Source of the DNA: Nitrospirota bacterium | GTDB lineage: Bacteria > Nitrospirota > UBA9217 | Assembly (NCBI GenBank): GCA_049793155.1 | Contig: JBARBN010000228.1 | Coordinates: 14,644 to 78,643 of the forward strand | Length of the DNA: 64,000 nt | Reading direction: 5' to 3' | Shown here: piece after piece, positions 3,106-28,306 of the stretch | How the letters are laid out: the number at the start of each line of letters is the position of its first letter | How positions within the stretch are numbered: the first letter of the stretch is position 1 | Made by a program: the position numbers and the translations under genes | Notes under the pieces: model-generated | The model's database searches: none | Told to the model about the DNA's origin: nothing | What the model saw: the letters and a program-made list of their open reading frames with translations, nothing else

Positions 3106-3137
3106 AGTTCAGGGTTTGTAGCTGTGAATATTTCTCA

Positions 3138-4052: not shown

Positions 4053-4101
4053 AGTCTCGAGGACCCCTCACCATTGAGAATCATTTGCCAGGTCTTTCTT
4101 C

Positions 4102-5460: not shown

Positions 5461-5532
5461 TGTAACAGCTGAACCTGTTTCTCGTACTGCATGGTTGCCG
5501 TCTGCAAATATAAGAGGACGGCCGGATACACA

Positions 5533-7274
<1,742 letters not shown>

Positions 7275-7416: not shown

Positions 7417-8430
7417 TCAGGGCTGTTTTGCCAGGATGCTTTCATCCTTTAAAAGTATTTCCACTTTGGCCTTTTCGCGCAATTTCCTGGCTTGAAGGTC
7501 CGCCTGCTGTTTCGATTTTTCCTCTCGGAGAAACTGTTTTATTTTCTCCTTCACGTTTTCATAGGCAAGCACGGTTTCAGGCTTTCTATCGGTCAGCTTG
7601 AAAATGTGGAAGGCGTAATCTGTCTCAATGATCTCCGTCGTTTCTCCCGGTTTGAGCGCAGCTATCGCGCTTTCAAACTGTTTCTCCAGTTGCCCGCTTC
7701 TGAGATACCCCAGATCGCCGCCGTGGGTCCGCGTGGGACCGTCGGACTGTTCCCGTGCAAGGGCGGAGAAGTCCTGCCCCTTCTTCAGGTTTTTCAGGAT
7801 CTGCTCGACCTTCCGGCGAGCCTCCTCTTTTCGAACATTGTCCCACGTGGGGTCCGAACGGACCATGATATGGCTTGCGCGCACCTGATACGGCTGCTTG
7901 AACAGGTCGAGGTGGCCCTCGTAATAAGCGACCATGTCGTCCTCCGAGACCTTTGTTTTCGCCCCGAACTGCCGCTCAATGTACTGCTGGACCGAATTGT
8001 TCCTTTCCAGCCTGGATCGCAAGACCTTTTCCGAGATATGTCTTCTGCTCAATTCATTATTAAATTCCGTCTCATCGGGAAACTGTTGCCTCAGCGCCTT
8101 GAGCTCGGCATTGATGCCGTTTTCATCAGGCTTGATGCCGGCTTTGCGGCTCTCCTGGCAAAGGATCTCACGCCGGATCATGCTTTCGAGCACCTCTGCC
8201 CTGATGGATGCGACCTGGTTCGAAGTGAGCGGCTTTCCGTAACCCAGGAGCGTTTTCTGGATCGTGAGGACCTCTCCCTCAAATTCTCCCCGGTCAATTG
8301 ATGAGCCGTTCACCAGTGCCGCCGTGTCATCTGCCGGTTCAGACTTCTTCACTTCAGCCTGGGCCGTCAGTACTACTGCAAGGAAGCCCATCATGATCAC
8401 CATCATCCGAAATCGCGAAACTCCGCTCAT
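7417..8430 (-). CDS. SurA/PrsA-like periplasmic parvulin-type peptidyl-prolyl isomerase / chaperone
   Basis: Signal peptide. N-terminal SurA-like chaperone region. Parvulin domain HIMVRSD...GGDLGYL...FHIFKL. Confidence 0.7.
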   Translation of the reverse strand: MSGVSRFRMMVIMMGFLAVVLTAQAEVKKSEPADDTAALVNGSSIDRGEFEGEVLTIQKTLLGYGKPLTSNQVASIRAEVLESMIRREILCQESRKAGIKPDENGINAELKALRQQFPDETEFNNELSRRHISEKVLRSRLERNNSVQQYIERQFGAKTKVSEDDMVAYYEGHLDLFKQPYQVRASHIMVRSDPTWDNVRKEEARRKVEQILKNLKKGQDFSALAREQSDGPTRTHGGDLGYLRSGQLEKQFESAIAALKPGETTEIIETDYAFHIFKLTDRKPETVLAYENVKEKIKQFLREEKSKQQADLQARKLREKAKVEILLKDESILAKQP

Positions 8431-8432
8431 GG

Positions 8433-9125
8433 TTATTCTCCTCCGTTATCTTTTTTATTATTGATCTTCTGCTGCTCGATCTCTTCCCGGTACTTCTGTG
8501 TAAGCTGTTCCAACTCGACCTTTTTGACCTGGACGATGGGTTCTCTCTCAAGAATGGCCGCGCCAATTCCCTTATTCCGATATTTTGTCAACAGTTCATC
8601 AGCAATGATGCAGAGCTCGGCGTTGTTTGACGCGCAATGGGCAAGGTCCTGGGTCTTTCTTTTCAACTCCGACTGGAGGGCCTGTTTCTCCCCGGTTGTC
8701 TTTTTCAGTCCCAGCTCCAGTTCCTTATTGCTCTGAGCTGTCTCCCGCAGTTCCTTTTTCATTTTGGTGGAAGCTTCTTCCGATGCCCTGGCCTGCATCT
8801 CGAGCTTTTGCACCTGTTCTTTTACCGTCCCCAACTGTCCCGTCAGGGTCTTCCGCTCATTACGGAGCGTGAGTTGGAGCTTGTCCAGATCACTCCGGCA
8901 CTTCTGTTCATTTTGCTCCAGGGAACTCATTGCCTCGGTTTTGTCCTCTGCCATTTTTTTCTGGAAAAAGGCGACCTTCTTGTTTGCCTCCTTGATCCTC
9001 TCCTGGCAGATCTTCTGCTCCTTGTTAATCTGAATGTGCCCCACGCCCAAACCGATGATCAGGCCGATCGCCAGTGCGGCCGCGGGTATGATGTGTTTTT
9101 TCTGAAGCACGGGCAGCTTTATCAT
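8433..9125 (-). CDS. Membrane-anchored coiled-coil protein of unknown function
   Basis: One N-terminal TM (IIPAAALAIGLIIGLGVG) followed by about 190 aa rich in heptad-like K/E/Q/L repeats. Contiguous with the flanking genes, so probably co-transcribed. Confidence 0.5.
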   Translation of the reverse strand: MIKLPVLQKKHIIPAAALAIGLIIGLGVGHIQINKEQKICQERIKEANKKVAFFQKKMAEDKTEAMSSLEQNEQKCRSDLDKLQLTLRNERKTLTGQLGTVKEQVQKLEMQARASEEASTKMKKELRETAQSNKELELGLKKTTGEKQALQSELKRKTQDLAHCASNNAELCIIADELLTKYRNKGIGAAILEREPIVQVKKVELEQLTQKYREEIEQQKINNKKDNGGE

Positions 9126-9201
9126 TTATGCTCTCCTCACACAGACCAGCACCGACACCCCGGAACAGTCATCAATTGGAAGTTATCGCGAGCTTGATAA
9201 A

Positions 9202-10806
9202 CTAAAATCTTGCATTAAGATCCACCTGCAGCACGTCGATCCCAAGCGGTGGACCGCTGATCTCGTCCGCCGTCAACCATCGAAGCGTAAGCCAGGTGTT
9301 CTTCGCCAACCCGACATCGGTCCCCAGGATCCACCCTTTTGCATTGGTGCCCCCCAGATGAAAATCTGAGTCTGTAAAGCCGTCCACCACGGCGTCCGCC
9401 CCCAGGCGTTTTTTGTAGAAATACACCTTCCACTGTCCTGGCGCATAAGCGGCCGGATACCCTACGGACATACCATATTGGTAGCCCTCGATTTGCCTGG
9501 CGGGATCGGGATTGCCCGTCCTCTGGGCAACATCGGATTTTTTAAAACCGAGGTTTTTCACATAATCGCCGAGGAAAACGATATGAAAAGGGTCCCAGAA
9601 GCCGATATCGAGGGTCCCCGTGACGTTCAGTTCCTTGAATTCCGAAGCAAGGGCCGTCTTATAGACGTTCGGGTCCGCGCTGATATTGAGCAGGGTGTTC
9701 CCCTTCTGCTGGAACAGAGGGGCGGTCCAGTCGGTGGCGCCGGGATTATTAGGATCATTGGGCACACCCGTGATGTTCTTGAAATCGTAGTAGGCGGAAC
9801 CGATCTTAAAACCTATGCCGTTCTGGCTTTTCCGGTCCAGTCCCAACTGCCCGGCCATAAGCCACTTCCCGTGCTGCGTGAAATCGTTCTGCTGCAGCGG
9901 AAAAGCGCCGGCAGTGAGAAAGGGCGTCCATGATTCCGCAATGGGCGTCCTCGCCTGCAGGGCTAGACCCTCGAAATTTAAATCCCTGGCCCACACAAGA
10001 TCGGACGAAAACCACGGATTAGGCATCCTCCCCCCGTACAAGGTGATCGACTTCCACGGCTGCCACTTGAGATAAGCAAGATCGAACAGGACAGAATCCT
10101 TGTTCATGTAGTCACCCATGGTCGAATTTGTCGACACGGGGTTTGTCGTGCTCCCTGAGGCCAGGCGAATGACTGCATCCCATTCTTCATTTACCATCGC
10201 CTCCGCGCCGAAACGGACCCGGTATTTGAAGCGGTCCGCGTCAACCTTTGTATTCATGAGTTGACTCGGGCTTGCCGGCTGGGCAAAATCGGCGTTGTTC
10301 TTGTCAAAGCGGTCTTTCTCATATCTCAGTCGAAGCTCGCCGTAAAAGCGAAGCCGCTTGTCTTTTTCGGTCAAGGCCCGATTTATCTTCCAGACTTCCC
10401 TGAGCAACTCATTCGTGACCTCGCTCCTGATCTCTTCTTTGATGTCCTCAAGCGATTTCTGCGATTCCAAAACAGCGGTAGAGACCTGCTCTTCGGCGGG
10501 CTCGGTCGCTGTTTGTCCGGTAATAAGAGCGGCATCTTCGTCGCTTATCACTTTTTTGCTCTTCAGGAGCTCCAGCAGTGCCGCGGTCTGCTGGTCGGGA
10601 AGCTCCTTCCGGCGCTGCAGATCAGCCAGAGTGGCCGCAATCCTCGGATCAGCTGGTTCCTTGCGGGCTTGCTCGGCGGACAAAGCGGCGTCGCTTTGAG
10701 AGGGCATTCTCTCATGTTGTATGATCACGGGCTGGGGAGCGGATGCGCATCCGATAAAAAGTGAAAGCAGGACCACCCCTATACCCCAACTGACTTTTTT
10801 TCTCAT
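9202..10806 (-). CDS. Outer-membrane beta-barrel protein (putative porin family), lipoprotein-type signal peptide
   Basis: Start taken at MRKKVSWGIGVVLLSLFIGCASAP (10806), which carries a lipobox. A long coiled/charged N-domain is followed by an aromatic-rich beta-strand region. The C-terminus ...LQVDLNARF ends with Phe, typical of outer-membrane beta-barrels. No TonB-dependent-receptor plug motifs were seen. Confidence 0.55.
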   Translation of the reverse strand: MRKKVSWGIGVVLLSLFIGCASAPQPVIIQHERMPSQSDAALSAEQARKEPADPRIAATLADLQRRKELPDQQTAALLELLKSKKVISDEDAALITGQTATEPAEEQVSTAVLESQKSLEDIKEEIRSEVTNELLREVWKINRALTEKDKRLRFYGELRLRYEKDRFDKNNADFAQPASPSQLMNTKVDADRFKYRVRFGAEAMVNEEWDAVIRLASGSTTNPVSTNSTMGDYMNKDSVLFDLAYLKWQPWKSITLYGGRMPNPWFSSDLVWARDLNFEGLALQARTPIAESWTPFLTAGAFPLQQNDFTQHGKWLMAGQLGLDRKSQNGIGFKIGSAYYDFKNITGVPNDPNNPGATDWTAPLFQQKGNTLLNISADPNVYKTALASEFKELNVTGTLDIGFWDPFHIVFLGDYVKNLGFKKSDVAQRTGNPDPARQIEGYQYGMSVGYPAAYAPGQWKVYFYKKRLGADAVVDGFTDSDFHLGGTNAKGWILGTDVGLAKNTWLTLRWLTADEISGPPLGIDVLQVDLNARF

Positions 10807-10910
10807 GCTCTCGAAGGCCCTCGTTATAATACTGTGATTCCGTTGTTTCATCGTGATATCCACCTTAAGTCTCTTGCCCCCGTTCCAAGCTGTCGTTCTC
10901 TCGCACACTG

Positions 10911-11615
10911 TCAACCCTGCGAAGTGATCCTGATGTCCATCGTCCGCGGCATCCCGTTTGGCGGCGGCTCACTGATCTTGATCGAGCCGAGGGTCCGCAG
11001 GACCGCCTCGTCCATCCTGTTGTTCCCCGAAGATCCGATGATCCGGAATCCGACTATGGCGCCGTCACTGTCCACGCTTAGTCTGACGACCGCCTGCAGT
11101 TTCCCCTTGGGGATCCCGCCTTCGTCGTCAAGGCTCTTCATGACCTTCTTCCTGATGGTTGTCGTCACGATCTGGGTATACCCGGCGTATTTGTTCAGAA
11201 GAGAGATCGCCCCCATGCCGTTTCCACCGGCAAGGAGGCTTCTGCCTCCCTTTTTTCCGACTAGTCCGAACGCGTCGTTCCCGGCGCCCCCTTCCGCATC
11301 CAGACCCAGTTTGTCGCCGGCCGGTGTGTTGTCATTATCGGCACTCGGAGCAGCCGGAGCCTCGTTCTTCTGTTCCGGATCTATGATGTCTTCCTTCTTC
11401 TGGGTCTCCTTGACCGGCTCCGGCTCCGGCGGTTTTTCCTTGATAACGACCGGCGGAGGTTTCATCAGGGTCACCGTGGCCACGGTATTCTTTTTTCTCG
11501 GGACCGTGTCGCTCATGGCTACTTTGACGATATATATTCCCGCGCCCAGAATGATGATCATCACGGCAATGAGCCCCCAGGACACGGAAGGCTTTTTATC
11601 CGGCATGTCGGACAT
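10911..11615 (-). CDS. tonB: TonB-family energy transducer
   Basis: Start at MSDMPDKK, with a GGGGA Shine-Dalgarno. One TM helix, a Pro/Glu/Lys-rich spacer (KPPPVVIKEKPPEPEPVKE) and a C-terminal TonB-CTD-like domain (YTQIVTTTIRKKV...GKLQAVVRLSVDSDGAIVGFRII). Confidence 0.75.
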   Translation of the reverse strand: MSDMPDKKPSVSWGLIAVMIIILGAGIYIVKVAMSDTVPRKKNTVATVTLMKPPPVVIKEKPPEPEPVKETQKKEDIIDPEQKNEAPAAPSADNDNTPAGDKLGLDAEGGAGNDAFGLVGKKGGRSLLAGGNGMGAISLLNKYAGYTQIVTTTIRKKVMKSLDDEGGIPKGKLQAVVRLSVDSDGAIVGFRIIGSSGNNRMDEAVLRTLGSIKISEPPPNGMPRTMDIRITSQG

Positions 11616-11747
11616 ATTTTTTCCCCAAATTACAAAGAGCCTCTTACAAATGCAGCACCTGTTATTGTAGCCGCAGGCTTTAGCCTGCGCCCGGAACGCT
11701 TCAGTGAAAGAAACACGCAAGCTGAAGCTTGCGGCTACCTACCAGCG

Positions 11748-12164
11748 TCACTTCACCAGCTTCTGCGTCACCAGCCCAAGCTGGGTGATCTCCAGTCGCT
11801 GGAGGATATCCAGGACCTCAATGACTTTTTTGTACGATATTTTTTCATCGCCCCGGATCACGACCGGGAAATTCGGCTCTGCGGCTTTATACTGCCGAAG
11901 CCTGCCTTCCAGTTCCTGCAGAGTGACGGGAAAACTGTCGAGGAAGATGGGCCCGTCAGCAGTGATCGTGATCGCCTTCGTGGTGGACTTTATTTTCCCG
12001 GCGGCGGCGCCTGCCTTGGGAAGATTGACGGCGATCCCCTGCACAGAGGCCGTCACGACGATCATGAACACGAGTAGGAGGTTCCACGCCAGGTCAAGCA
12101 TGGGTACCACGTTGATCTCATCGTATGATTCAAGTTCATCGAAGGGGTTTTTCCCATGACGCAT
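11748..12164 (-). CDS. exbD: ExbD/TolR biopolymer transport protein
   Basis: EINVVPMLDLAWNLLLVFMIV...PVVIRGD is the ExbD/TolR signature. The start MRHG (12164) abuts the upstream stop at 12166. Confidence 0.8.
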   Translation of the reverse strand: MRHGKNPFDELESYDEINVVPMLDLAWNLLLVFMIVVTASVQGIAVNLPKAGAAAGKIKSTTKAITITADGPIFLDSFPVTLQELEGRLRQYKAAEPNFPVVIRGDEKISYKKVIEVLDILQRLEITQLGLVTQKLVK

Positions 12165-12165
12165 A

Positions 12166-13989
12166 TCACTTGTCCCCTTCCAGCCTGAGGATGAAATCAT
12201 CGATAAAAACATTCACATCGGCATTCATATTTCTGATATGGCCGGTGACGTAACTGCTGGCGAACAGTGCGGGAATGGCGACCAGGAGACCTGCCATCGT
12301 GCAGGCAAGCGCTGAAGCAACACCCGGCGCGATCGCCGCGAGATTCGCTTCGCCGCTCTCAGCTAGGCCTGCAAAAGTGTTCATGACGCCCCAGACCGTG
12401 CCCAGAAGACCAAGGAAAGGCCCGCCCGCGACACTCATGTTCATGATGACCATGCCGGCGGAAAGTCTTCTGCTTTCATGCATGGCCTCTTTCTCAACAG
12501 CGGCCCGAAAACCGTTCATGGCCCTCCCGGAGAGTCCTTTTACTTCTTCATAAGATTCTCCCTTTCTCTCCAGCCCGTTTTTTATTTCTTCGCATCCGGC
12601 CCGGTAGACACGGTAGAGCGACGAGCCCGGGAATTCATGCTCCTTCTCAAGAAGCGCCAGGGGATGTTCGACATGCCGGAAGGACTGGGTAAACGTTTCA
12701 TTTCCCTTTTTTGCCTGGCCGAGTATGGTGATCTTCTGCCTGAAGATATACAGTGACCCGCATCCCATGAGGAACAGAAATCCGATGATAAGCCATCCAT
12801 CGAGGGTAATGGTCCGGATAATGACCTTCATAAGATGGACGGTCAAAGACTCGCCGCCTCCGCCGCCACCGCCCGTCTCTTCCTCCAGGTAGGACGTCAG
12901 CGCGCCGTCCGGTCCCTGGCCCTTGAAGGCCGCCTTGATCCAGCCGGCCGTTCTGGCCGTGTTGGACAACTGCACTTCATCCAGATCACCCGAAAACGCG
13001 TTGTCCCCTTTCTCGGATGCGCCGATGATGATTTCCGCTGAGGGCGCCGGTACCGCCCCTGTAAGTTTGATCGATGCTGTCTCAGTGCCATCCAGGTAAA
13101 GGGTGATCTTCTTATCGGGCTCCGCGGTCACGGCCAGATGATGCCAGCGATCCTGGACCAGGGCAGTTGTTTTCGGCGTCTCCGTGCTCCGACCTTTTCC
13201 CTGGCCCAGACTGCAGTATGCCTTAGCATCGTCGATCCCTATTACGATGGACTGGTTAAAGTCAGCCCAGGAAAAAAGACGCATATTCCCTGTAGAGCGG
13301 TTCAGGCGCACCCAGGCGGAAAAGGTGAATCCCTTGGCAAAGTTGAACGATGTCGCTCTGGCGACCGTCATCTTTGCATCGGTCCCGTTGAACTGAAAGC
13401 CGTTTCCGACGACCGACGGGATGCCGGGTTTGGCCGACGAAGAAGTGGTATGGTTGGCGTAAGCCGTTGCATCTTTCGGAAGTCCGAACAACTCATTCAG
13501 GTGATACACAGCCACCTGGTTCACATCATACGTCCCGCCCGCGTCCTGACCGTCCGGCGAGGAGGAGTTCCCGTAATACATCCAGATCGAATCCTGATCG
13601 GCCCCCCCGGAGATCCGGGGGACCTTGACCCATATCAGGGCGATCTCTTCCTTGGGATCGAACTTCTCGATATGATATTTCAGCGGTAACTTATCGTCCG
13701 CGCTCACAAACCTGAGGTCCGAGCCATCGGGCTTTGCATTGGGAAAATTGAAGTTGCCCGTATGGAGACGTACGAGAACGGGGACATCCGTGAGATCATC
13801 CTTGATGTCAGTGCCCTTGGATGTCGTATCGAACTGGATCTTTTTTCTTTGCTGCCACTTTCCGTCCCACCACGCATGCGCGCTCGGTGGAGCGAGCAGG
13901 CCGAGAACGAACACCAGCCCCGCAACAGCGGCCGCTGTTTTTATCAATGAACGCCACGGTATAAGAGAAGTTATTCTGCCCATAGACAC
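12166..13989 (-). CDS. Fusion protein: N-terminal periplasmic LamG/DUF2341-like domain of about 370 aa plus a C-terminal MotA/TolQ/ExbB proton-channel domain
   Basis: Signal/TM start. The N-terminal region is beta-rich and concanavalin/LamG-like, with a poly-Gly linker (GGGGGGG). The C-terminus AGGPFLGLLGTVWGVMNTFAGLA...AIAPGVASAL is the MotA/TolQ/ExbB channel signature, with three TM helices. Confidence 0.7.
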   Translation of the reverse strand: MSMGRITSLIPWRSLIKTAAAVAGLVFVLGLLAPPSAHAWWDGKWQQRKKIQFDTTSKGTDIKDDLTDVPVLVRLHTGNFNFPNAKPDGSDLRFVSADDKLPLKYHIEKFDPKEEIALIWVKVPRISGGADQDSIWMYYGNSSSPDGQDAGGTYDVNQVAVYHLNELFGLPKDATAYANHTTSSSAKPGIPSVVGNGFQFNGTDAKMTVARATSFNFAKGFTFSAWVRLNRSTGNMRLFSWADFNQSIVIGIDDAKAYCSLGQGKGRSTETPKTTALVQDRWHHLAVTAEPDKKITLYLDGTETASIKLTGAVPAPSAEIIIGASEKGDNAFSGDLDEVQLSNTARTAGWIKAAFKGQGPDGALTSYLEEETGGGGGGGESLTVHLMKVIIRTITLDGWLIIGFLFLMGCGSLYIFRQKITILGQAKKGNETFTQSFRHVEHPLALLEKEHEFPGSSLYRVYRAGCEEIKNGLERKGESYEEVKGLSGRAMNGFRAAVEKEAMHESRRLSAGMVIMNMSVAGGPFLGLLGTVWGVMNTFAGLAESGEANLAAIAPGVASALACTMAGLLVAIPALFASSYVTGHIRNMNADVNVFIDDFILRLEGDK

Positions 13990-13997
13990 GGTTTTAA

Positions 13998-19900: not shown

Positions 19901-22900
19901 CGGTCGTCAGAACGCTGCCGTCGGCAAGATATATACGCTTTCCCGGGGCATTGAGTGTGATGGTCCCCATCGGGGCCGCGAGGGTCACGCCCTTTTCCAC
20001 ATCGATTCCTGCCAGGCCCTCCACAGTCAGGCTTCCGCCCGCCGAATAGATGGGCACATCTGCAGTGATATCCGCATTCTGGATCGTGTGCTGCAGCGTC
20101 ACTTTGCCGTTCGAGTGAACCGTGTAATCGGAGTACAGATCCGGATAGAATTGGCTTCCATGCGTCGTATATGAATAATAATTGCCCGGATATATCCGGT
20201 CCGCATCCAGAACCAGGTTGCCCGTTGTGGCCAGTATTCCATTCTTCACTGTTCCGGGATTGCCGTCTTTGCCGCTGGTGAAATTGTTGTCGTACAATAC
20301 CTGGCTCAGGCGTATATCCCGGTCGGTCCGCAGCGTGACATCACGAAAACCGTCGATCTGAACGTCTCCGATCACATCGATAAAGCCGCCATGTTTAACG
20401 CCGCTCGAATCTGTCCATCCTCCGGAAAGCGTGAACGATCCCGCGGTCGGGGAAGTTGAATTCGTGAGCGCCGGTGGAGACACTTTGGATGTGTTCGTAA
20501 GAACTATCCAGGGCGCGCTCAACGCCACGTTGTTTCCGGAGCCCGTGATCTCCGGCGCATCCAGGGTCAGCTTCCGGCCTATCAAGGCGTTATTGATGTT
20601 GCTGCTGAAGATAAGCGAGTACGCGCTCCTGAACGTCAGGTCGTCGAATCCCGTTGTGTGGAGAGCCAGCTTAGTGACGTCCATGCCGCTGGTCGCGTCT
20701 GTTTTGGCGATCGCCAGACTGCCTCCGCCCAGCCCCTCCAGTTGCGCATGATTGGCATATACGGAGCCCAGCGGATTCAGGTCGCTCCCGTAACTCAGGG
20801 AAACACTGCCCGGATTACTTGCTGTTTTATAGGTGGTGATCTTCCCGTTAGACAAGACCGTATTCTGGACCACGTCCGATCCTGAGACATCTACGATCGC
20901 CGAACGATCAATCTCCAGGGAACCAAAAGCAGTCAGTGACACATTGCCGCCGGTCATTGACTGGTAGTTGACGTCGAAGCCGTTTGGCGTAGATGACGGA
21001 TCAGGACGGTTGTATCCGGCTGCGGTTATTTTCGCGCCATTGCCCAGCAGAAGATCGCCCTTCGTCGCACTGAGGCTGATGTTTCCGGCCGGCGCGTCCA
21101 ACATTCCTTGCACGGTCACATTCGGGCCGGACAGAGATATGGATCCTCCGGGCGATGTTTGTATAACCGCGCCGTCGGAGACCATAAGGTTCACAGAGCT
21201 GCGATCTACGTCCTTTAAGTTGCCGGCAAAATTGCTGTTGCCGCTCGTCAGAGTGCCGTCAAAAAGTTTTGCCGCGTTCGCGGTAAATGAAGAGGGCCCG
21301 GCCATATAGCTCATAGCATCGTCGAGACGCATGAGATCGGGCCTTCCGGGTACCATGCTTCCTGAGGCATCCTGACCCTCGATCAGCGCTTTCCCTGTCT
21401 GCCCGATAATCGGATTGTTCATTCTGGCCAGCGAGGGAGTGATCGTTGTGTTTTTATCGATGATGAGATCATTCTGACTGTTGAGTGTGATCCGCGTGAA
21501 ACCAGTATCATCGAACCGGTTTTCGGCAAGGGTGAACTTGTCCTTCATCTCAGCGGAGACTGAAGATTTCTGTGGATCTGAACTGGCGGCATCAAAACTG
21601 CTCCAGTCGTATGTTTGAGGGATTGATGAAGCCGGAGCAACAGTAATATTGGTCGAAGCAAGGGTAATGGCGCCTCCCTGGAGTTTGCCGTTCGGATCAG
21701 CCAGGGCATAACCGCGCAGATCCCCGTCCAGCTCAATGTTCGTCCCCTGGATGCTTAATGACCCGGCATTCCCTCCCGTTACCTTGCCCTTCTGGTCGAT
21801 GGAGTATCCGCCGCTCACATCCATCAGGGCGCCCGTTTGCACGAAGACGCCCGCCCCCTGGTCCGTTTCATCCTTCAGAGAGACGGACCCGCCGTTCGTT
21901 CGCCCGGAACCTGCAAAGGCATTACCGGTTGTCCCCGCCTGGCTATTATCTATCCGTTCTCCCGACACATCGAGAACGCTCTTCTTTCCTGCAATGATCC
22001 TCTCATCGAGCGGCTCATAGGAGGCGCCATTGGACGTTCCGTTGGCGTTAAGTTGACTGGTGTTGTTCTGCGCCGCGTATAAATTTATTTCACCGCCGTG
22101 AACCGTGATCGAGCCCTCGTGGTCGATCCGTCTTGCCGTCGCCGCAAAAGAACCACCCGGTTGCAGCACGAGGCCGGCATCGGCAGCCGTGTCAATGGTC
22201 AGGTCTGCCGTAAGGTTCACGGTGCCCAGCTTCGCATTGTTCAGGGTCGTGGCCGAGATCAGCGTGGGACCGGTCAGGGGATCGGAACCGATGGTAAGCT
22301 TATTATCGATGCTAAGCTGTTGAGGGTCTATTTGCGAAAGGACGGAAATCGACGTGGGGTTATTGAGCGTAGTGCTTCCGGAATTGCCTATTTTCAGCGT
22401 TCCCGCCCTTGGTGTTTCGATGCCCTGGGCCTTGGAAAGCATCAGCGCTTCCTCGTAATCCGCATCGGTACCATATGCAGTTCTCGTCGTCCAGGCATTC
22501 TGATAGGTGCCGCGCGTTACACTGCCGTTGAGCTGACCATCGAGAACGACCGAGGACGCCGTGAGCGAAAGCGTGCCGGCATCGCCGCCCTGGGCATAGC
22601 CTTTCACATAGGTCTTCAACGAGGAGGCGCCGCCGTAGTATATCCCTGAATAGGACTCCCGGATACCGAACCCGTCGTACGTTTTTTCGTAATTTCCGAG
22701 GAGCTTATTATACTGAATGTTGGCCGGGGCATTGCCGATGTCGTAGATCTGCGTGCCTGACAGCAGCTTCGTGGAATCAACAAGGCCGCTTTGATAGTTG
22801 ATCAAGCCGCCGGCTAAATTGAGCGCGGCCCCTTGCTTGATGATAATATCGCCGTTCGTCACATTCATGTCTATGTTTCCGGTTTGGGGTTGATAGACCC

Positions 22901-24392
22901 AATGGTCCGGTAATTGGTTCGTGGAATCGTGCCATAAGTACTTTCTTATATCCCCGCCGACGAGCCGCTCATACGCAGTCTTGTCCCGGGTCAGCAATGC
23001 CTGCGAAATATCTCCGATCGATGACCCCGAGGTCACGGAGGTTGTTATTTTTTCACCCTGCAAAACACCGTTCTTCTGATCGTAATAATCCCGAAGCTCG
23101 ACGCTGGTCAATTTGGCATCGGCAACCACCGCAACGGGGAGGTCCTTCATGACACCGCTTACGTCGATGCTGCTGCCCGATTCCATGTAGACCCGGTCGG
23201 TCGCCCTCAAGGTTACGTTCCCCGCCGGCGCAACAATGTTTCCCCTCAGCTCGATCTCATTCGCGCTGTTGGTCCCTCCCCTCATGTCATTGTTGTTGTT
23301 CTTGCTCAAACCTCCTATGAACACGACCGGCTGAATGTCGAAGGTATCGCTGATGGTGCGCGGCAGGCCGGTCACCGGGTCCAATGAAACATCGACCGGC
23401 AGCAGAATCATGCTGTTAACGCCTGTGGTGATCTTTTTCGCTGCCCTCAATTCCACCTGACCGTTCTTATTCTGGAATGCCGTCACGGCACGGATGACCC
23501 CCCACTGATCAATGTTGTTGCCGTGCATGCCGGCCACGCCGCCATCGGCGTATAATTTCCCGCCCTCCCGGTTCACGGCACGGCCGAAATCAGGATCGGT
23601 ACTCATGGGCGCGTTCAGGAAGTCATCATTGATCACGACATAATAGCCGGATCTCGCCGTGTCGCTCTCTTGCGGGGTCAGCAGCTGCACGTCCGTCCCG
23701 GCAACCAGACCGATCTGGCCTGCGGGCGCATTGATGGTGCCGCCATTTTCCACACGGGGGGCCATAAGGAATACAGTGCCGCCATTTGCAGTGATCTCTC
23801 CAAAATTCGAGACCGTAGCCTGCAGATCAAAACCCGCTCCTGATTGCTGGTAGTCCTCCGCCTTGAATTTCAATGCATTGTTTATGAAATCGCCATCATG
23901 GATATTCAAGGCCGAGGCCACCAGGCTATTGACGTTCACTATCGAGCCCTGCCCGAAGAGGATGCCGTTCTGATTAATGAGGTAGATCTTTCCGTCCGCC
24001 GTGAGCTTTCCAAAGATCAGGCTGGGGTCCCTGCTCCAGATCCGGTTCAGGGCGGACCAGTTTGCATTTCCCTGCTGATCGAACTTTGTCCAGGCATCAG
24101 CGCCGATATCGAAAGATGACCAATCGATGATGACGTTCGGCTGGGTCTGATGGACGACGAGCTGGTTCTGCGAAGTATTATTATCAACAGTGACGCCAGG
24201 TATGGTTGCTGTCGGTTGTTGCAGCACAGGCAATTGTGTCCGGGGAGGAGGCGCTACCGTTGATCCGTAAAAGCCGGGAATATTGACCTGACCGGCCAGG
24301 GCGTAATGGGGGAACAGGACCAGCACGCAACCGAGCAGTCGCATCATGACATGAAAAAAGCTGATTTTCATTGCTCCCCTCCTGTACCTCAT
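13998..24392 (-). CDS. Giant TpsA exoprotein of a two-partner secretion system (filamentous-hemagglutinin-like; 3464 aa)
   Basis: Signal peptide, then a TPS secretion domain: NVIIDWSSFDIG...ALNRIWS...GKIYLINQNGILFG. This is the FhaB/ShlA-type NPNL/NPNGI-like core. About 3100 aa of degenerate G/N/S/T-rich beta-helix-like repeats follow. The C-terminus is acidic (...DFVEDDNDKSKEE). The real start is probably MKISFF at 24371. Confidence 0.85.
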   Translation of the reverse strand: MRYRRGAMKISFFHVMMRLLGCVLVLFPHYALAGQVNIPGFYGSTVAPPPRTQLPVLQQPTATIPGVTVDNNTSQNQLVVHQTQPNVIIDWSSFDIGADAWTKFDQQGNANWSALNRIWSRDPSLIFGKLTADGKIYLINQNGILFGQGSIVNVNSLVASALNIHDGDFINNALKFKAEDYQQSGAGFDLQATVSNFGEITANGGTVFLMAPRVENGGTINAPAGQIGLVAGTDVQLLTPQESDTARSGYYVVINDDFLNAPMSTDPDFGRAVNREGGKLYADGGVAGMHGNNIDQWGVIRAVTAFQNKNGQVELRAAKKITTGVNSMILLPVDVSLDPVTGLPRTISDTFDIQPVVFIGGLSKNNNNDMRGGTNSANEIELRGNIVAPAGNVTLRATDRVYMESGSSIDVSGVMKDLPVAVVADAKLTSVELRDYYDQKNGVLQGEKITTSVTSGSSIGDISQALLTRDKTAYERLVGGDIRKYLWHDSTNQLPDHWVYQPQTGNIDMNVTNGDIIIKQGAALNLAGGLINYQSGLVDSTKLLSGTQIYDIGNAPANIQYNKLLGNYEKTYDGFGIRESYSGIYYGGASSLKTYVKGYAQGGDAGTLSLTASSVVLDGQLNGSVTRGTYQNAWTTRTAYGTDADYEEALMLSKAQGIETPRAGTLKIGNSGSTTLNNPTSISVLSQIDPQQLSIDNKLTIGSDPLTGPTLISATTLNNAKLGTVNLTADLTIDTAADAGLVLQPGGSFAATARRIDHEGSITVHGGEINLYAAQNNTSQLNANGTSNGASYEPLDERIIAGKKSVLDVSGERIDNSQAGTTGNAFAGSGRTNGGSVSLKDETDQGAGVFVQTGALMDVSGGYSIDQKGKVTGGNAGSLSIQGTNIELDGDLRGYALADPNGKLQGGAITLASTNITVAPASSIPQTYDWSSFDAASSDPQKSSVSAEMKDKFTLAENRFDDTGFTRITLNSQNDLIIDKNTTITPSLARMNNPIIGQTGKALIEGQDASGSMVPGRPDLMRLDDAMSYMAGPSSFTANAAKLFDGTLTSGNSNFAGNLKDVDRSSVNLMVSDGAVIQTSPGGSISLSGPNVTVQGMLDAPAGNISLSATKGDLLLGNGAKITAAGYNRPDPSSTPNGFDVNYQSMTGGNVSLTAFGSLEIDRSAIVDVSGSDVVQNTVLSNGKITTYKTASNPGSVSLSYGSDLNPLGSVYANHAQLEGLGGGSLAIAKTDATSGMDVTKLALHTTGFDDLTFRSAYSLIFSSNINNALIGRKLTLDAPEITGSGNNVALSAPWIVLTNTSKVSPPALTNSTSPTAGSFTLSGGWTDSSGVKHGGFIDVIGDVQIDGFRDVTLRTDRDIRLSQVLYDNNFTSGKDGNPGTVKNGILATTGNLVLDADRIYPGNYYSYTTHGSQFYPDLYSDYTVHSNGKVTLQHTIQNADITADVPIYSAGGSLTVEGLAGIDVEKGVTLAAPMGTITLNAPGKRIYLADGSVLTTAGSAEVMYGLIDPNNLWLLEDKSNPGINAGTTSRITQDSLPQKGITLNADEVVARGGSVIDVSGGGSIFGYKFQPGVEGSVDPLTKTGRYVVFKADSFPMPGTAVYLQGGGGLSAGMYTLLPLDAKNPQNARYAFLPGASIIEAQSGPSLPEQGALSKDGYPLVVGYSAVADTPIQGTRPQVFTVRTAAEVLHAEGSYVKPEPILSGDAGIIKISGNTMILDGKLKAAAGQGFQGGKISLSAANIIVQTASTSPLGNYFNFDTSFDDLLHPELQKLKGGLTMSADGLTGFREVDLGDAGSTNSITITSTAEAPTVLNASIISLAAKNQITIGKSSSLQAVTDQNTNSGEGVITLTTPGTLDIGSNAILHATHAVSLDANNVATMKGSLQSDNGALTLKSSAIFLDDGTRTDTGLHVTQNMWTNNFTGFQDITLVSNSGNNAGIQFRENFNLSAGNSLTLDASRIANVSQSPIAVTLEAPTINFKNSGTASTLPPDASMGASIFTAATSANAGGIGTINIGDGDVLFANFNRINLNSRNDLTLNGKGSLSAGNADLSISAARVVAVSTAGTNKHKDGTATTSLTPADFAVYAGANYHNDQNDPNPTNKITIAGNGNAAGPSSTQGGTLEFWGASIDQGGVIQADGGSIKLSAMGSGPADGVMLRSGSKILAQGTVDAPGGQVLLKSVNGGIVLDSSSLIDVSAGSQGDAGLISLQSPIGGVLINGSLMAAAHGGAGGSFILDTSQLADIDMTRLIGTLSAGGFTESVDMRARKGNIDIASTDKLTAHLVKLTEDDPSKDANGVLLTDSNGNPLYGNINVAGRIEVSQGGSVELYAMNDLNIQSGGSIRAVSSTSGSLDANVLLSSSAASININGKIDVSGSDGTAPTGVVYLRAQCNLANNDLNATIASGAIAGASAVYAEAVRSYDISSSTPDLALPTGISDATTFYTNYMNNTNRFGTGINNFHLLPGIELVSNGNIDLNAAWDATTSRFGGEPGVLTIRAAGDLNINNNLADSPSGYNITSAPSGQNSWGFDLVAGADLSSADHMAVNNSGAGNLSFANNVIVYTETAPIRIASGKDTIIGVADQPPGYMLPSYMMNYSLASFTGSIRGNVGRDLIVAGAIQTATGDIDINIGRDLNLLVGNDTNNAGAGAIRTTGRLSAAAAAANWGDNPFDPMVIALPGSIQSDIYQTYYWRYDKGGNINLSVGRQAGKLNSSGQWVVADKTDAWDYFSPIEVSFPLAGNGGSATLAYYGVFSADYVNGTAGLATMGGGKLAVRTGGDFLAQAGTFGTGDLTIYSGGDIKGRFLNHGSAGEPGRAEIHAMGNFGAFDKQAQIELFNSRMNVTAQGEMQIGAVLNPTLASDKIDESRNYFVQCTYMPETSIKLKAGTDVTIAGNSPYYANDPTGYAKNYERVLPATVNVDAGGDIMLRNDFTLASFSKGDLSLDAGADVIGQVLDTAHGTYRSATILMSDISTQNWYGLFYIGNPDSPEKSGQWISKRTSNLHGLYDPTDNTWSFSEPLHAGDDQAITVHADEDIKGLNMKFSKKAEVTAGRDIVDITYEGQNITSNDVAMIRAGRDISIQYVKASSQNSAQGGLIQGGPGVFLVQAAGSIDLGSLSDGIQEIGNGNNPALGAEKSSLVVLSGYGFDKPASDIQAFFNSIRTAGDTYAGLMADGKLDEASQLLQTTRTKTIAPLLDAPTGAGDINMTSSQISTSNAASDIFVIANGNLNLGKTALPSASVVNTTTGITTANGGAINIFAVKDINVQESRVMTFFSRQDMVDPTKLYGDITVWSDQGNINAGRGSRTAVNASPPKRKQVPGLTGVYETVFTPPAVGSGMRALTYGDNPPVPGNVHLFAPTGVIDAGEAGIAGGQITLAALKVNNASNITFSAGSIGVPQSSEGTASLGTLAGTGITQNTQMNTDASGIGVSRAQASQMVEDIIAKWLDVKVVDFVEDDNDKSKEE

Positions 24393-25993
24393 CAGAACAC
24401 CGCCTTCAGTTTAAAATACAGCCTCAGATCATTGCTCTTTGTCCGGTCCGTGGCGTCCAGGGCCTTGGCCCCGTCCAGCTCGTATTCCAGGTTCTTCGCC
24501 ATCGAGCCCCGCAAGCCCACCCCGGCTCCTTCGAGCTTGACGCTGCCCGCCTGGCCAGGAAGGGGTTCTTGAGTAGTCAGCGCGGCAATGTCGTAGAAGA
24601 GAAAGGGGATCATCTGCAGCCACTTCCCGGTCCTGGTTTGTTCGAAAGGATTGGGGAAAGACACTTCCACCGTGCCATGCACGGCCTCATCGCCTGAAGC
24701 CTCGCTCTCCTTGTATCCCCGCACGCTTTCCATGCCACCCGCGACAAACTGCTCATTGTTGATAAGCGGCTGATCGGATGACTGCCCGTCCACCTTCACG
24801 AGCAGGTTCATCCCTCGGGGCAGCTTCTGGTTGCGCTGGATGGACGCTGTTTCGTAAACGTAGTCCGCCCTCCCCTTGAAGCGTTTGAGCTCGAACTGTC
24901 TCTCATGGGAACCCATGCCGCGGAAGGACATGTTCACTCCCGCGTTGAACTGTGTCATCCCTCCCCACTCATCCGGCAGGGACGCGTTGTAGGAAAAAGA
25001 AAGCGGCGTATAAGAGATCGGCGTATGGGTCGTCTCACCGCCTGCCGTGGTGAAACCGATGGCTTGATCGAATTGCTTGTAATCAATGCCCAGGGTCAGG
25101 TTATGTGAATATAGCTGGTACGGTGTCAGTGCTGTTACATATCGAGTGCCGAATATCTTTCCCTTTCCGATCACCTTGAAGTCTTCGCCAAATGCCGTAG
25201 TACTGTCCGACCAGATACCATACAGCGCCAGCTGATCGTCCTTCTGCCATGGCGCGGGCAGGACGTAGGATGCGCCCAGGACCTCAACCTCCTTCGTCTT
25301 TCGGGGAGCGGTCTGGTACTGAAAGGATAGGGAGTGCTCCGCTTGCCAGAGATTATCGTAACGGGCCATCCCGTTCAATCGCAATGCACTCGTGTCGTAG
25401 CTGGCCCTGTTGTTCAATTCCAGATACCCGTGAAAAGGAAGCCGGTCTTCCACCTTCAACTCAACATCGATGGTCCCTACTACCTTGCCCGGCGTCATTA
25501 CGGGTTCGACCTTGATGTCCTGGCTTCTGTTCAAGCGGCCGATCTCCTTCTGGACCTGCGGCAGATACAGGATCGAACCCGGGGTGAATGACGGCAGGTC
25601 CTTCATCACTTTTTCCATCGTGAAATACCGGTTGCCCGTGACCTTTACCCGGCCTATCCGGCTCTCGATGACCTGCAGCCGGACAACGCCCTCCTGCAGG
25701 GTTTGCTCGGGGATGTTCACCATAACAGCCGGATAACCGGCTTCGTGATAAAGTTTTTCGAGGACATCGCGGGCCTTTTCCACATCAACCGCTGTTTTTC
25801 CGGCGCCGGTCAACAACAAGACCGCTGCCTGCAGTTTATCTTCCGGCATGAGGGTATTTCCTGTGATCTCAAAGGTCTTGATCTCGAATCCTGATGTCCC
25901 GCCCTCCTCGGCGAGGCACACCCTGATCAGTGTTCCCTGCAGGGTCATGATCACGACCAGGAGACAGATGAGGCGCCTGCTGATATTCTCCAC
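24392..25993 (-). CDS. TpsB outer-membrane transporter (ShlB/FhaC family, Omp85 superfamily)
   Basis: Signal peptide, two POTRA-like regions and a 16-strand barrel region ending ...LRLYFKLKAVF (C-terminal Phe). Its stop overlaps the tpsA start. Confidence 0.8.
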   Translation of the reverse strand: MENISRRLICLLVVIMTLQGTLIRVCLAEEGGTSGFEIKTFEITGNTLMPEDKLQAAVLLLTGAGKTAVDVEKARDVLEKLYHEAGYPAVMVNIPEQTLQEGVVRLQVIESRIGRVKVTGNRYFTMEKVMKDLPSFTPGSILYLPQVQKEIGRLNRSQDIKVEPVMTPGKVVGTIDVELKVEDRLPFHGYLELNNRASYDTSALRLNGMARYDNLWQAEHSLSFQYQTAPRKTKEVEVLGASYVLPAPWQKDDQLALYGIWSDSTTAFGEDFKVIGKGKIFGTRYVTALTPYQLYSHNLTLGIDYKQFDQAIGFTTAGGETTHTPISYTPLSFSYNASLPDEWGGMTQFNAGVNMSFRGMGSHERQFELKRFKGRADYVYETASIQRNQKLPRGMNLLVKVDGQSSDQPLINNEQFVAGGMESVRGYKESEASGDEAVHGTVEVSFPNPFEQTRTGKWLQMIPFLFYDIAALTTQEPLPGQAGSVKLEGAGVGLRGSMAKNLEYELDGAKALDATDRTKSNDLRLYFKLKAVF

Positions 25994-26130
25994 CTGTCGC
26001 TACGCTCCAGTTCCGCTTTTGATCGTCCCCGCTTCCGCAACCTTGTCGATTGACGTATCGCAGGCCGGGAGCAGGAACACGACGGGTACGGCGGTATGCA
26101 GCCACGCACTGATCCGTTTTCTATATTGCA

Positions 26131-26325
26131 TCATGATGAAATTCCTTCTGCCCGCCTTTTTTCGTTTCTTGTCTCTCCCGACATAATGATCGCGGCATCG
26201 TTGATTTCTTCGTACTTTTCCACCCTCCCCAGGCTGCCCTGGCTGAAGTTGATCTTGACATATCCGCTGAATTCCCCTTCCACAAGCATCCTGATCACTT
26301 CGCTGAGACTTTTCATCCTGTCCAT
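26131..26325 (-). CDS. Small conserved protein S1 (64 aa), paralog of the ORF at 32339..32473
   Basis: MDRMKSLSEVIRMLVEGEFSGYVKINFSQGSLGRVEKYEEI... The corresponding 44-aa stretch of S1 (about 55% identical) aligns with MEKIKKMMEVIKALMDKKFTGYIRINFTRGSVERIEKFEEILKK. The shared core is EVI..L....F.GY..INF..GS..R.EK.EEI. It lies between the NusG-like gene and tpsB. Confidence 0.6.
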   Translation of the reverse strand: MDRMKSLSEVIRMLVEGEFSGYVKINFSQGSLGRVEKYEEINDAAIIMSGETRNEKRRAEGISS

Positions 26326-26363
26326 GGCCGCCCTCGTGATTCGCTGGTATTAAAATACCGGCA

Positions 26364-26867
26364 TTATGCCGCTTCAACATCGTCAGCGTAAATTTTTACG
26401 CCGACGCTTCTTCCCAGAAGCTCTATGCTGACGAGCAGAATGTGATGATCTTCTTTGCTCGCCAGTATCCCCTCTGCGCCCCTGAATACCCCGTTTTTTA
26501 CCCGCACCCGGGCGCCCTGTTTCAGATGCGGATAGACATCAATGTTTTCCCGGGCATCAAGGAGTATCTTCAGCGCGCGTATCTCTTCGGAAGCCACTGG
26601 TGTCGGATGTCCGGGCTCAAGGGATATGAACGTCACGGCGCCCCGGGTTTTCAAAACTCTTAGAAATTCCTCCGGACCCGGCAACAGGGAAACAAAGAGA
26701 TAGCCGGGGAACAGGGGAACGTCCACACGTTTTTTTCTGTCTTTCCATTGATTCAATTTTGTTACTGAAGGCAGAAAGGTTTCGATGCCCTTGCCTTGCA
26801 GTTCGCCCGAGACCACGAATTCATGTCGTGACTTCACGTGTACCGCATACCAGTTGGCGCTCATCAT
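26364..26867 (-). CDS. NusG-family specialised paralog (UpxY/LoaP/RfaH-like transcription antiterminator)
   Basis: NGN domain WYAVHVKSRHEFVV...FPGYLFV. C-terminal KOW-like GARVRVKNGVFRGAEGILA. Much shorter than housekeeping NusG and placed at the head of a long operon. Start taken at MMSANWYAV; the upstream 53-codon in-frame extension looks non-coding. Confidence 0.7.
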   Translation of the reverse strand: MMSANWYAVHVKSRHEFVVSGELQGKGIETFLPSVTKLNQWKDRKKRVDVPLFPGYLFVSLLPGPEEFLRVLKTRGAVTFISLEPGHPTPVASEEIRALKILLDARENIDVYPHLKQGARVRVKNGVFRGAEGILASKEDHHILLVSIELLGRSVGVKIYADDVEAA

Positions 26868-27035
26868 GGTCTTGCACCTAGGGAATGATTTGAGATTTGT
26901 ACAGACAAAGGGTGATACCGGAACGGACCATGAGGACTCGTTATGGGCTTTCCGGTCGTTGATGCTTTTTGAGCACCAACTCAGCAAAGTACCCGCATAC
27001 TCTTGCGGTGTGCGAAGCGATACCATACTATAGTC

Positions 27036-27089
27036 TTGTTAAAACTTGATGACTGTATTGTTACAATTTGATAAAGAATTTAATAACCG
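27036..27089 (-). promoter_or_regulatory. Direct-repeat array A (5 heptamers at 11-bp spacing) upstream of the NusG-like/tps operon
   Basis: TTGTTAAaac TTGATGActgt aTTGTTACaat TTGATAAagaa TTTAATA. It lies about 180 nt upstream of the NusG-like start. Confidence 0.5.
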
Positions 27090-27203
27090 CTAGTGCAAAA
27101 AGATTGTTCGCAAAGAACGCAATAAAAAGATCAAATATTTATTTTTGGCATTACGTGCTCTGTGTTCCATGCGAGCTCTACGGCTGATGTTTCTTCCCCG
27201 ATT

Positions 27204-28091: not shown

Positions 28092-28227
28092 GGCTCACTT
28101 CCTTTTCATAAATAAATTTTGCCACAAAAAGCACATTTAATATTCGCTTTCCCTTGTGTTCTTTGTGACTCTGTGGCTAAGACGATTTCAGGCTTATCCG
28201 GTTTAGGCAACGAACTCTATCACAGCT

Positions 28228-28270
28228 CTGTTACACCAATATGACAGTTGAATTAAGATTTGATGATAAC
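28228..28270 (-). promoter_or_regulatory. Direct-repeat array I upstream of the FKBP lipoprotein gene
   Basis: cTGTTACAccaa TATGACAgttg AATTAAGattt GATGATA. Preceded by CTATCAC, as in arrays C and D. Confidence 0.45.
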
Positions 28271-28282
28271 GTAAATAAAAAT

Positions 28283-28306
28283 GCGGGGCTCTGAACAGAG
28301 CCCCGC
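28283..28306 (-). terminator. Intrinsic terminator downstream of 28356..29615
   Basis: GCGGGGCTCTG-aaca-GAGCCCCGC. In the minus direction it is followed by AUUUUUAUUUACGUU. Confidence 0.6.

Follow-up and report, generated by a model that had tools for sequence, protein, structure and literature searches.

A two-partner secretion pair encoded together with a TonB-type motor

Two-partner secretion (TPS) is taught as being energy-independent at the outer membrane. What, then, are the genes for a complete TonB-ExbB-ExbD energiser doing directly downstream of a TPS pair in a Nitrospirota genome? We analyzed a stretch of 64,000 nucleotides from this genome (assembly GCA_049793155.1, contig JBARBN010000228.1, positions 14,644 to 78,643; here called the window), in which nearly all long open reading frames (ORFs) are located on the minus strand. 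A first-pass annotation had described ten genes at 26867 to 7417 as one operon headed by a paralog of NusG; all ten lie on the minus strand at the positions assigned to them, and profile searches against Pfam and NCBIfam upheld every domain call. The most interesting part of the locus is the conserved coupling of TPS to TonB, a kind of coupling that is already on record in Pseudomonas aeruginosa. Coordinates below are those of the window, and the features described are on the minus strand.

The genes for TpsB (24392..25993) and TpsA (13998..24392) overlap by 1 nt. TpsB has two POTRA domains (POTRA_2, PF08479, 51.1 bits) and a ShlB barrel (PF03865, 72.8 bits), with the VRGY motif of loop 6 present as SVRGY. 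The 3464 aa long TpsA starts with a signal peptide followed by a TPS domain (aa 71-237; PF05860, 75.8 bits; TIGR01901, 66.4 bits), continues with a long body in which BLASTP of the protein against itself detected no internal repeats, and carries a C-terminal DUF3739 (aa 3287-3397). Its closest solved structures in the PDB are EtpA (2e-25) and HxuA (9e-15). A TPS domain protein with TpsB encoded next to it is, by its domains, a type Vb pair, and this pair is predicted to export a giant beta-helical exoprotein. No functional literature was found on DUF3739, PF16930, the combination of DUF2341 and ExbB, or that of PEP-CTERM, hemagglutinin and ExbB.

For the next four genes the start codons were set from the gene calls of relatives and from signal peptides, which gives proteins of 605 (ExbB), 138 (ExbD), 234 (TonB) and 534 aa (porin). 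The ExbB/TolQ-type subunit (12166..13983) is a fusion of DUF2341, Laminin_G_3 and a MotA_ExbB channel domain. In its structural model (pLDDT 78.9) a signal helix and a pair of beta-sandwich domains are joined to a helical bundle of the TolQ/ExbB type, and a structure search found that the beta-sandwiches resemble pentraxins and the lectin-like domains of clostridial toxins. According to the model, ExbB thus bears a periplasmic domain of approximately 350 residues that is similar to lectins or carbohydrate-binding modules (CBM). The ExbD/TolR protein (11748..12164) has the transmembrane Asp, and the TonB-like protein (10911..11615) consists of a transmembrane anchor, a Pro-rich spacer, the conserved Gly-rich motif LGLDAxGxAGxDxFGL and a TonB_2 C-terminal domain. 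The best NCBIfam matches of the two channel subunits are TolQ (118 bits, cutoff 221) and TolR (85 bits, cutoff 127) and not ExbB and ExbD.

The following gene (9202..10806) encodes a lipoprotein of the Porin_5 family (E 5e-127) with a near-invariant lipobox Gly-Cys-Ala. A model calculated from a 40-sequence alignment (pLDDT 70) contains a disordered stretch, short helices and a 42-residue helix that leads straight into a barrel of approximately 16 strands. The structural Z score is 26 with OmpM and approximately 11 with TonB receptors; the second-best structural match is OprP. As modelled, this is an OmpM-like fold of the trimeric-porin type that bears a coiled-coil stalk and lacks a plug, which rules out a classical TonB receptor. 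From the stalked trimeric porins OmpM of Veillonella and DcaP of Acinetobacter the protein differs in having no surface-layer homology domain, in its lipidated N-terminus and in being encoded together with a TonB set. A TonB-dependent receptor with plug and 22-strand barrel is found neither in the window cluster nor, when all ORFs of the 80 related loci described below were clustered, among the recurrent neighbours.

The protein encoded next, here termed cc230 (230 aa, 8433..9125), has an N-terminal membrane anchor, a coiled coil of approximately 150 residues and, at its C-terminus, a conserved motif. It has no match in Pfam, and its 125 homologues are all unannotated. The last of the ten genes (7417..8430) codes for a SurA-like parvulin peptidyl-prolyl isomerase (PPIase) with signal peptide, as identified by profile searches. 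Altogether, the cluster encodes, as predicted from its proteins, a private transducer of the proton-motive force (PMF), a lipidated stalked porin, an inner-membrane-anchored coiled coil and periplasmic PPIase chaperones.

The arrangement is conserved across phyla

A search of species-representative genomes, based on aligned ExbB fusions, yielded 598 confirmed relatives, of which 80 loci were kept (related loci from this and the other searches are designated by L numbers). The 80 loci come from Nitrospirota, NC10, Desulfobacterota (Geobacter, Desulfuromonadaceae, Desulfobulbus, Desulfosarcina), Gammaproteobacteria (Steroidobacter, Povalibacter, Solimonas, Methylocaldum), Betaproteobacteria (Sulfuricella, Rhizobacter), Alphaproteobacteria (Methylosinus, Hyphomicrobium, Bradyrhizobium, Magnetospirillum), Verrucomicrobia and Pirellulales (Planctomycetes). 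Neighbouring genes were identified by tblastn with the window proteins and counted downstream on the same strand in loci with enough flank. ExbD follows the ExbB fusion in all 71 assessable loci; TonB is present in 60 of 69, Porin_5 in 54 of 62, cc230 in 37 of 57 and a SurA-like protein in 9 of 53. A TPS gene ends at most 2.5 kb upstream of the ExbB fusion in 63 of the 73 loci that could be assessed. The C-terminal region of TpsA aligns across 54 loci with conserved motifs and is the part of the protein that is matched in the largest number of loci, a count that is biased by the truncated upstream flank.

Forty-one loci have the window type of layout, with tpsA directly before exbB. In three the order is tpsA-tpsB-exbB, and in 12 it is tpsB-exbB with tpsA out of view. 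In the remaining seven, exbB to cc230, in part with surA, are inserted between tpsB and tpsA, and this position of the motor genes argues for a direct functional tie. Because of the frequencies of ExbD, TonB, Porin_5 and an upstream TPS gene, the arrangement is far beyond chance. TpsB and TpsA with DUF3739, the DUF2341-LamG-ExbB fusion, ExbD, TonB, the lipoprotein Porin_5 and the coiled-coil protein, with or without a PPIase, are accordingly treated here as one predicted module, which on the basis of these comparisons is conserved across at least eight phyla and hundreds of species. The proposal of the first-pass annotation that a TPS pair is coupled to a complete TonB-ExbB-ExbD set, a barrel other than a TonB receptor and a coiled-coil protein is borne out by the linkage in the 80 loci, and the co-occurrence extends across phyla.

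The cluster type is known from Pseudomonas aeruginosa

In P. aeruginosa PAO1 the gene order is pdtA (PA0690)-phdA-pdtB-exbB2-exbD2-tonB4-PA0696-PA0697-PA0698-PA0699, followed by the LysR gene PA0701 (PMC7035377, PMC2729926). PA0696 is described as 'putative outer membrane porin', PA0698 belongs to the YbjN family and PA0699 is a PpiC-type PPIase (PMC7035377, PMC4971064). When phosphate is depleted, sigma-VreI and PhoB induce the cluster (PMC4971064, PMC7035377), and a single promoter is reported to drive phdA to PA0701 as one transcriptional unit (PMC4971064). Llamas et al. (2009) reported the joint occurrence of PUMA3, the TPS pair, ExbBD and PA0696 in several Proteobacteria (PMC2729926). The gene content that the first-pass annotation had called unusual is of a type described in P. 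aeruginosa, and the association was noted in 2009. The ExbB2-ExbD2-TonB4 set has been called 'still uncharacterized', and its function and those of PA0696-PA0700 were described as unknown (PMC7035377); in the literature, no later functional work on the cluster was found after the 2009 report.

The connection to PAO1 was made via intermediates. Twelve records of plasmids or chromids contain a match that covers 93-95% of the window ExbB fusion. One of these, the Klebsiella pneumoniae plasmid NZ_CP065459 (L125, 2292-13789), encodes the ExbB fusion, ExbD, TonB, a putative porin, a 218-aa hypothetical protein, YbjN, a PPIase, a hypothetical protein and LysR, which is the order of PA0693-PA0701. On the Burkholderia arboris chromid (L126), genes for a VreA-like protein (STN and TonB_2), an extracytoplasmic function (ECF) sigma factor, FecR, a transposase/Phd-like ORF and tpsB are followed by those for the ExbB fusion, ExbD, TonB, Porin_5, a cc230-like protein, YbjN and PpiC. 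By its gene order, this is the PUMA3 layout as reported for P. aeruginosa (PMC2729926, PMC4971064, PMC7035377). Since both loci have the same order with full-length homologues, it is well supported that the window cluster is of the pdtA-PA0699 type, with its homology to PAO1 deduced through these intermediates.

The two clusters share TpsA, a small gene, TpsB, ExbB, ExbD, TonB, the porin, a protein of approximately 220 aa and a parvulin PPIase, and both have phosphate-starvation genes as neighbours. In the window, in contrast, tpsB precedes tpsA, the VreAIR ECF-sigma system is missing and a UpxY-type NusG paralog is found instead, YbjN is absent, a FKBP-like lipoprotein and the small ORF sm63 are added, and glycan genes follow without a terminator. 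In addition, the host is represented by a Nitrospirota metagenome-assembled genome. 

Klebsiella IncFIB/IncHI1B plasmids from clinical and environmental sources bear the whole module. In L125, tpsA and tpsB, which precede the ExbB fusion, appear to be decayed (frameshifted and unannotated); the ExbB fusion, ExbD, TonB, porin, YbjN and PPIase are intact.

Ever since 2009, the P. aeruginosa genes exbB2-exbD2-tonB4 and PA0696-PA0699 have stood unexplained within the virulence regulon of phosphate starvation. New here are the phylogenetic breadth of the module, the lectin-like periplasmic domain on ExbB, the OmpM-like stalked-porin fold and the recurrent links to glycan and PEP-CTERM genes and to phosphate scavenging. 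These points turn a vague annotation into hypotheses that are testable in a tractable model organism.

Possible functions of the motor

Our preferred reading, to which we give a little under an even chance, is that the region is a Nitrospirota member of a widespread envelope module, whose trans-envelope assembly handles an extracellular polymer by means of the PMF. The ExbB fusion, ExbD, TonB, cc230 and the stalked porin would form this assembly next to TpsB and would use the PMF to place, hold or release the polymer, which might be the TpsA fibre, a glycan that is associated with it and held by the lectin domain, or both. The NusG paralog would allow RNA polymerase to read through the whole unit, including a hairpin between exbD and tonB. 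The surrounding glycan genes, the lectin domain, the chaperones and the lack of a plug-type receptor favour export, anchoring or release. With somewhat less confidence, we regard it as possible that the module represents a distinct and widespread class of PMF-coupled surface machines, in which a Ton/Tol-like stator with lectin-bearing ExbB subunits acts, via a private TonB and the stalked porin, on the giant TPS fibre to gate its release, retain it or power uptake of what it captures. Type Vb secretion would then have a dedicated energy coupling for the first time, and the orphan ExbB2-ExbD2-TonB4 set of P. aeruginosa would be accounted for; in contrast to the textbook view of TPS, hundreds of species have kept a TonB/ExbB/ExbD set of its own, a stalked porin and a coiled-coil protein together with TpsA/TpsB.

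Several points weigh against the preferred reading. TonB systems classically drive import and not export. In every organism, the functional tie between the TonB set and TpsA is a predicted one, and co-transcription of the window genes is deduced solely from missing terminators. The leader of the NusG paralog contains no ops-like recruitment site. Five loci (L030, L034, L041, L043 and L077) have the motor and the porin next to genes for exopolysaccharide (EPS) export and no TPS gene directly upstream, and TpsA may thus be a non-obligatory partner of the motor. Single tpsA, tpsB, tonB4 and PA0696 mutants of P. aeruginosa had no virulence phenotype in zebrafish, the sole assay reported (PMC2729926). 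Finally, the induction by phosphate starvation in P. aeruginosa and the phosphate island in the window fit an uptake function at least equally well.

Such an uptake function is the strongest alternative. TpsA would capture or process an extracellular phosphorus polymer and the TonB set would power its uptake via the stalked porin, without a classical plug-type receptor and following a logic like that of HxuABC, the haem-haemopexin system of Haemophilus influenzae. There, too, the genes of a TPS pair are linked with a step that depends on TonB, and the TPS domain of the window protein resembles HxuA (9e-15). HxuC, a TonB-dependent receptor with a plug, draws on the general TonB of the cell; the window cluster, in contrast, has no plug receptor and encodes a private ExbB/ExbD/TonB set together with a porin-fold barrel. 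Uptake agrees with the usual direction of TonB-driven transport, with OprP as the second-best structural match of the porin and with the dependence of the homologous P. aeruginosa cluster on PhoB and sigma-VreI and its induction by low phosphate (PMC4971064, PMC7035377).

It also agrees with the surroundings of the cluster. A phosphate-starvation-type island (35413-63999, minus strand) encodes pstS-pstC-pstA-pstB-phoU, several phosphatases of the acid and purple acid types, a PF04185 phosphoesterase, a 1501-aa protein with 5'-nucleotidase, CBM96 and MBG domains, histidine kinase and response-regulator genes and an OlsF-like acyltransferase-GNAT protein (61648-63495). A PstS-like gene is located just upstream of the cluster and is also found beside the module in L011, L012 and L023. 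Repeats similar to Pho boxes (CTGTCAT-N4-CTGTCAT, 11-bp period) were found at 53296, 32818, 31024-30996, 28258-28219 and 27066-27049, with arrays upstream of the lipoprotein gene g295 and upstream of the riboswitch/g260 operon. They are enriched between genes: five of the ten gene-strand matches fall into the 10.6% of bases that are intergenic, as scored solely against the E. coli consensus. Upstream of the module in other phyla, matches to this consensus are too few to judge. The lack of a TonB-dependent receptor in the window cluster and among the recurrent neighbours speaks against uptake, as do the many loci in EPS or PEP-CTERM export contexts. All in all, we consider uptake rather unlikely, though a serious contender.

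Compared with PMF-driven handling of a TPS-linked polymer, a function independent of TPS is still less probable. Here the ExbB fusion, ExbD, TonB, porin and coiled-coil protein would carry out tethering similar to Tol-Pal, or polysaccharide handling, and would share only a surface or matrix programme with the TPS pair. The order of the genes in the window mirrors tolQRA-(tolB)-pal-cpoB. TolQ and TolR are the best family matches of the channel subunits, the C-terminus of the TonB-like protein is of the TonB_2/TolA type, genes for an outer membrane lipoprotein and a periplasmic coiled-coil protein follow, ExbB carries a carbohydrate-binding-like domain, and some loci without a nearby TPS gene have OPX/PCP export genes. 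However, all scores fall far short of the Tol cutoffs, the lipoprotein forms a barrel of 16 strands, ExbB has the additional lectin-like domain of approximately 350 residues, and profile searches found no TolB or Pal domains in the cluster. Independence also disagrees with the 63 of 73 loci, from different phyla, in which a TPS gene lies immediately upstream, and the seven interleaved loci, which are hard to explain without a functional tie, make this reading less likely; we regard it as improbable.

A TPS adhesin in a polysaccharide setting is known from CdrAB of P. aeruginosa, which binds Psl polysaccharide and is controlled by cyclic di-GMP (c-di-GMP). The window shares with CdrAB a TPS exoprotein in a matrix or polysaccharide setting, and a c-di-GMP riboswitch operon adjoins the cluster. 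CdrAB is, in contrast, without a dedicated TonB set or porin; the sequence comparison was limited to the TPS domain.

The NusG paralog belongs to the lineage

The first of the ten genes (26364..26867) encodes a 167-aa protein with NGN and KOW domains (PF02357). It matches the UpxY model NF033644 over its full length with 127 bits (cutoff 100), compared with 48 bits for the nusG model TIGR00922 (cutoff 135.7) and 83 bits for RfaH (cutoff 144.5), and it is located outside any secE-nusG-rplK context. The protein is thus, by its profile scores, a specialised member of the UpxY family and not a housekeeping NusG, in line with the first-pass call of a UpxY/LoaP/RfaH-like paralog.

As a head of the TPS genes, the paralog is not conserved. 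A scan of metagenomes with the paralog yielded 36 relatives. In L091-L094 and L098 (63-78% identity) the paralog is found directly downstream of the SurA-like gene (gaps of 20-90 nt) and precedes galE, a DUF218-like, a flippase-like and a GT2 gene and the gene for an 878-aa protein; the module in the window has the same followers. Only L089, which has an 87% identical paralog, shows the layout of the window, and remoter paralogs adjoin GalE-like or GT2 genes. The paralog was not detected in the 80 species-representative loci, in which the region upstream of the TPS genes is unseen where TpsA fills the flank; in loci with tpsB directly before the ExbB fusion, approximately 8 kb upstream of tpsB were visible. 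The conserved link of the paralog thus appears to be with the glycan genes and the locus and not with tpsA length. It is, as far as gene order indicates, part of the wiring of this lineage and not of the module, and describing the cluster as NusG-headed is limited to this lineage.

With UpxY and RfaH systems the locus shares the match to the UpxY model, a long surface-polymer operon and a long leader. It differs in the variable position of the paralog, which in relatives is found mid-cluster and not as first gene of a polysaccharide operon, and in having no UpxZ-type partner. The AT-rich leader (336 nt, 26868..27203) contains neither the RfaH ops element (GCGGTAGC) nor the Bacteroides motif YGCGNAGCR (PMC11685472) on its sense strand, and window-wide counts of both are at chance. 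A scan against Rfam found no family in the leader. A segment of approximately 80 nt (27013-26933) is conserved with L088 and L090 (GCACACCGCAA.AGTATG..GGGTACTTTGCTGAGTTGG.GCTC..AAAGCATCAAC.ACCGGAAAGCCC); these three sequences are too few for covariation analysis. It is possible that this segment serves as a recruitment or pause element for the NusG paralog. UpxY-type NusG paralogs thus occur in Nitrospirota, at varying positions within the locus.

Probable extent of the transcription unit

The first-pass annotation had described tight junctions without terminators. This does not apply to three junctions, which have gaps of 132 nt (exbD-tonB), approximately 104 nt (tonB-porin) and 76 nt (porin-cc230), the first of them containing a terminator-like hairpin with a T-rich tail (11733-11716, -11.9 kcal/mol). 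The complete 132 nt spacer (11616-11747) can form a long stem-loop of -47 kcal/mol that competes with this local hairpin. The hairpin is lineage-specific because it is not conserved in relatives; in L124, whose ExbB is 82% identical, the gaps are 38 nt (exbD-tonB) and 11 nt (tonB-porin).

The sole strong terminator in the vicinity (28283..28306) is located upstream of g295 and downstream of the PstS-like gene. It has a 10-bp stem with 8 GC pairs followed by ATTTTTATTT (-21.9 kcal/mol), closes the riboswitch-g260-PBP419 unit and is the upper boundary of the transcription unit. Terminators were found neither between g295 and the NusG paralog nor between the genes from the SurA-like gene, which is followed by a gap of 157 nt, through the glycan genes to approximately position 470. 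The unit is therefore probably wider than 26867 to 7417. It is likely to run from approximately 28.1 kb (g295, 28091) to 0.47 kb (the gene for the 878-aa protein), about 27 kb, with g295 probably as first gene. A Pho-box-like direct-repeat array with 11-bp period, scored against the E. coli consensus, lies upstream of g295 (28219..28258); the site at 28247 has at most three mismatches to CTGTCAT-N4-CTGTCAT. This array is suggestive of a regulated promoter of the unit.

It is very improbable that the ten genes are merely adjacent and independently transcribed with an ordinary NusG-like gene, as the gaps of 76-157 nt at four junctions and the hairpin between exbD and tonB might indicate, given that synteny is conserved across phyla, that phdA to PA0701 form one unit in P. 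aeruginosa (PMC4971064) and that the paralog scores far better with UpxY than with nusG outside the usual nusG context.

Small open reading frames and lipoproteins upstream of tpsB

Instead of the single small protein of the first-pass annotation, two short genes are located between the NusG paralog and tpsB. The 126-aa ORF originally assigned here is not a true gene. What is conserved is a 64-aa ORF read in a different frame, here termed sm63 (26131..26325), with the core EFSGYIKINFSQGSLGRVEK. It is 75% identical in L089, 60% in the L002 family and 57-60% in the three Desulfobacterota loci L011, L012 and L023. A relation of sm63 to YezD/DUF2292 or to UpxZ was considered and rejected, as it has no Pfam match and is unlinked to the NusG paralog in other loci.

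The second ORF (44 aa, 26000..26134) joins a signal peptide and lipobox to the last approximately 19 residues of a FKBP-like lipoprotein, which is intact at this position in L089, the closest relative (370-aa ORF, 584-1696 of that locus). By this comparison the 44-aa ORF looks like a deletion remnant. The lipoprotein encoded by g295 (27204..28091; ITGC lipobox, weak similarity to FKBP-type PPIases) is a 41% identical paralogue of the L089 lipoprotein; the latter is located between the small ORF and tpsB, and g295 itself upstream of the NusG leader.

Glycan genes, PEP-CTERM-like proteins and a c-di-GMP riboswitch

Downstream of the SurA-like gene, genes for GalE, a DUF218-like, a MOP-flippase-like, a GT2 and an 878-aa protein follow (469..7259). 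In L094 and L124, GalE, ORFs of approximately 240 and 440 aa and GT2 follow the module in the same order, and in L094 the 878-aa protein does as well.

In L002 an exosortase and a kumamolisin-like protein are encoded inside the cluster. An exosortase was rejected as core component of the module: it is present only in Nitrospiraceae loci of the L002 type, and the window has no match. Five of the ten loci without a TPS gene directly upstream have neighbours related to EPS export. Beside the motor in L030, the best matches, all below cutoff, are an XrtA/PEP-CTERM OPX protein, a chain-length determinant, a tyrosine kinase and PrsT; in L041 a VPLPA-CTERM protein is among the best matches, and L034, L043 and L077 have related neighbours as well. 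Together, the five loci represent a gammaproteobacterial variant, in which the ExbB fusion, ExbD, TonB, in part cc230, and Porin_5 are encoded next to XrtA/PEP-CTERM-type EPS export genes, a PrsT-like tetratricopeptide repeat protein and DsbA-like genes.

A c-di-GMP-I riboswitch (RF01051, 30549-30628, minus strand, 53.9 bits) precedes the two-gene operon that ends at the strong terminator. This operon encodes g260, a secreted protein of 260 aa with a PEP-CTERM-like tail (29700-30449), and a 419-aa PstS-like protein (28356-29615). The riboswitch-gene pair is also located beside the module in the Desulfobacterota loci L011 and L012.

Altogether, four window proteins have tails similar to PEP-CTERM or VPLPA sequences (TPIPAA.WLFGSGL.GL.G.RRR), which were recognised by our own pattern alone and have no match in Pfam or NCBIfam. 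They are encoded at 29700-30482, 32854-34692, 43684-44376 and 49833-50411, all on the minus strand. They include a Lamin-tail-domain protein and a possible S8 peptidase.

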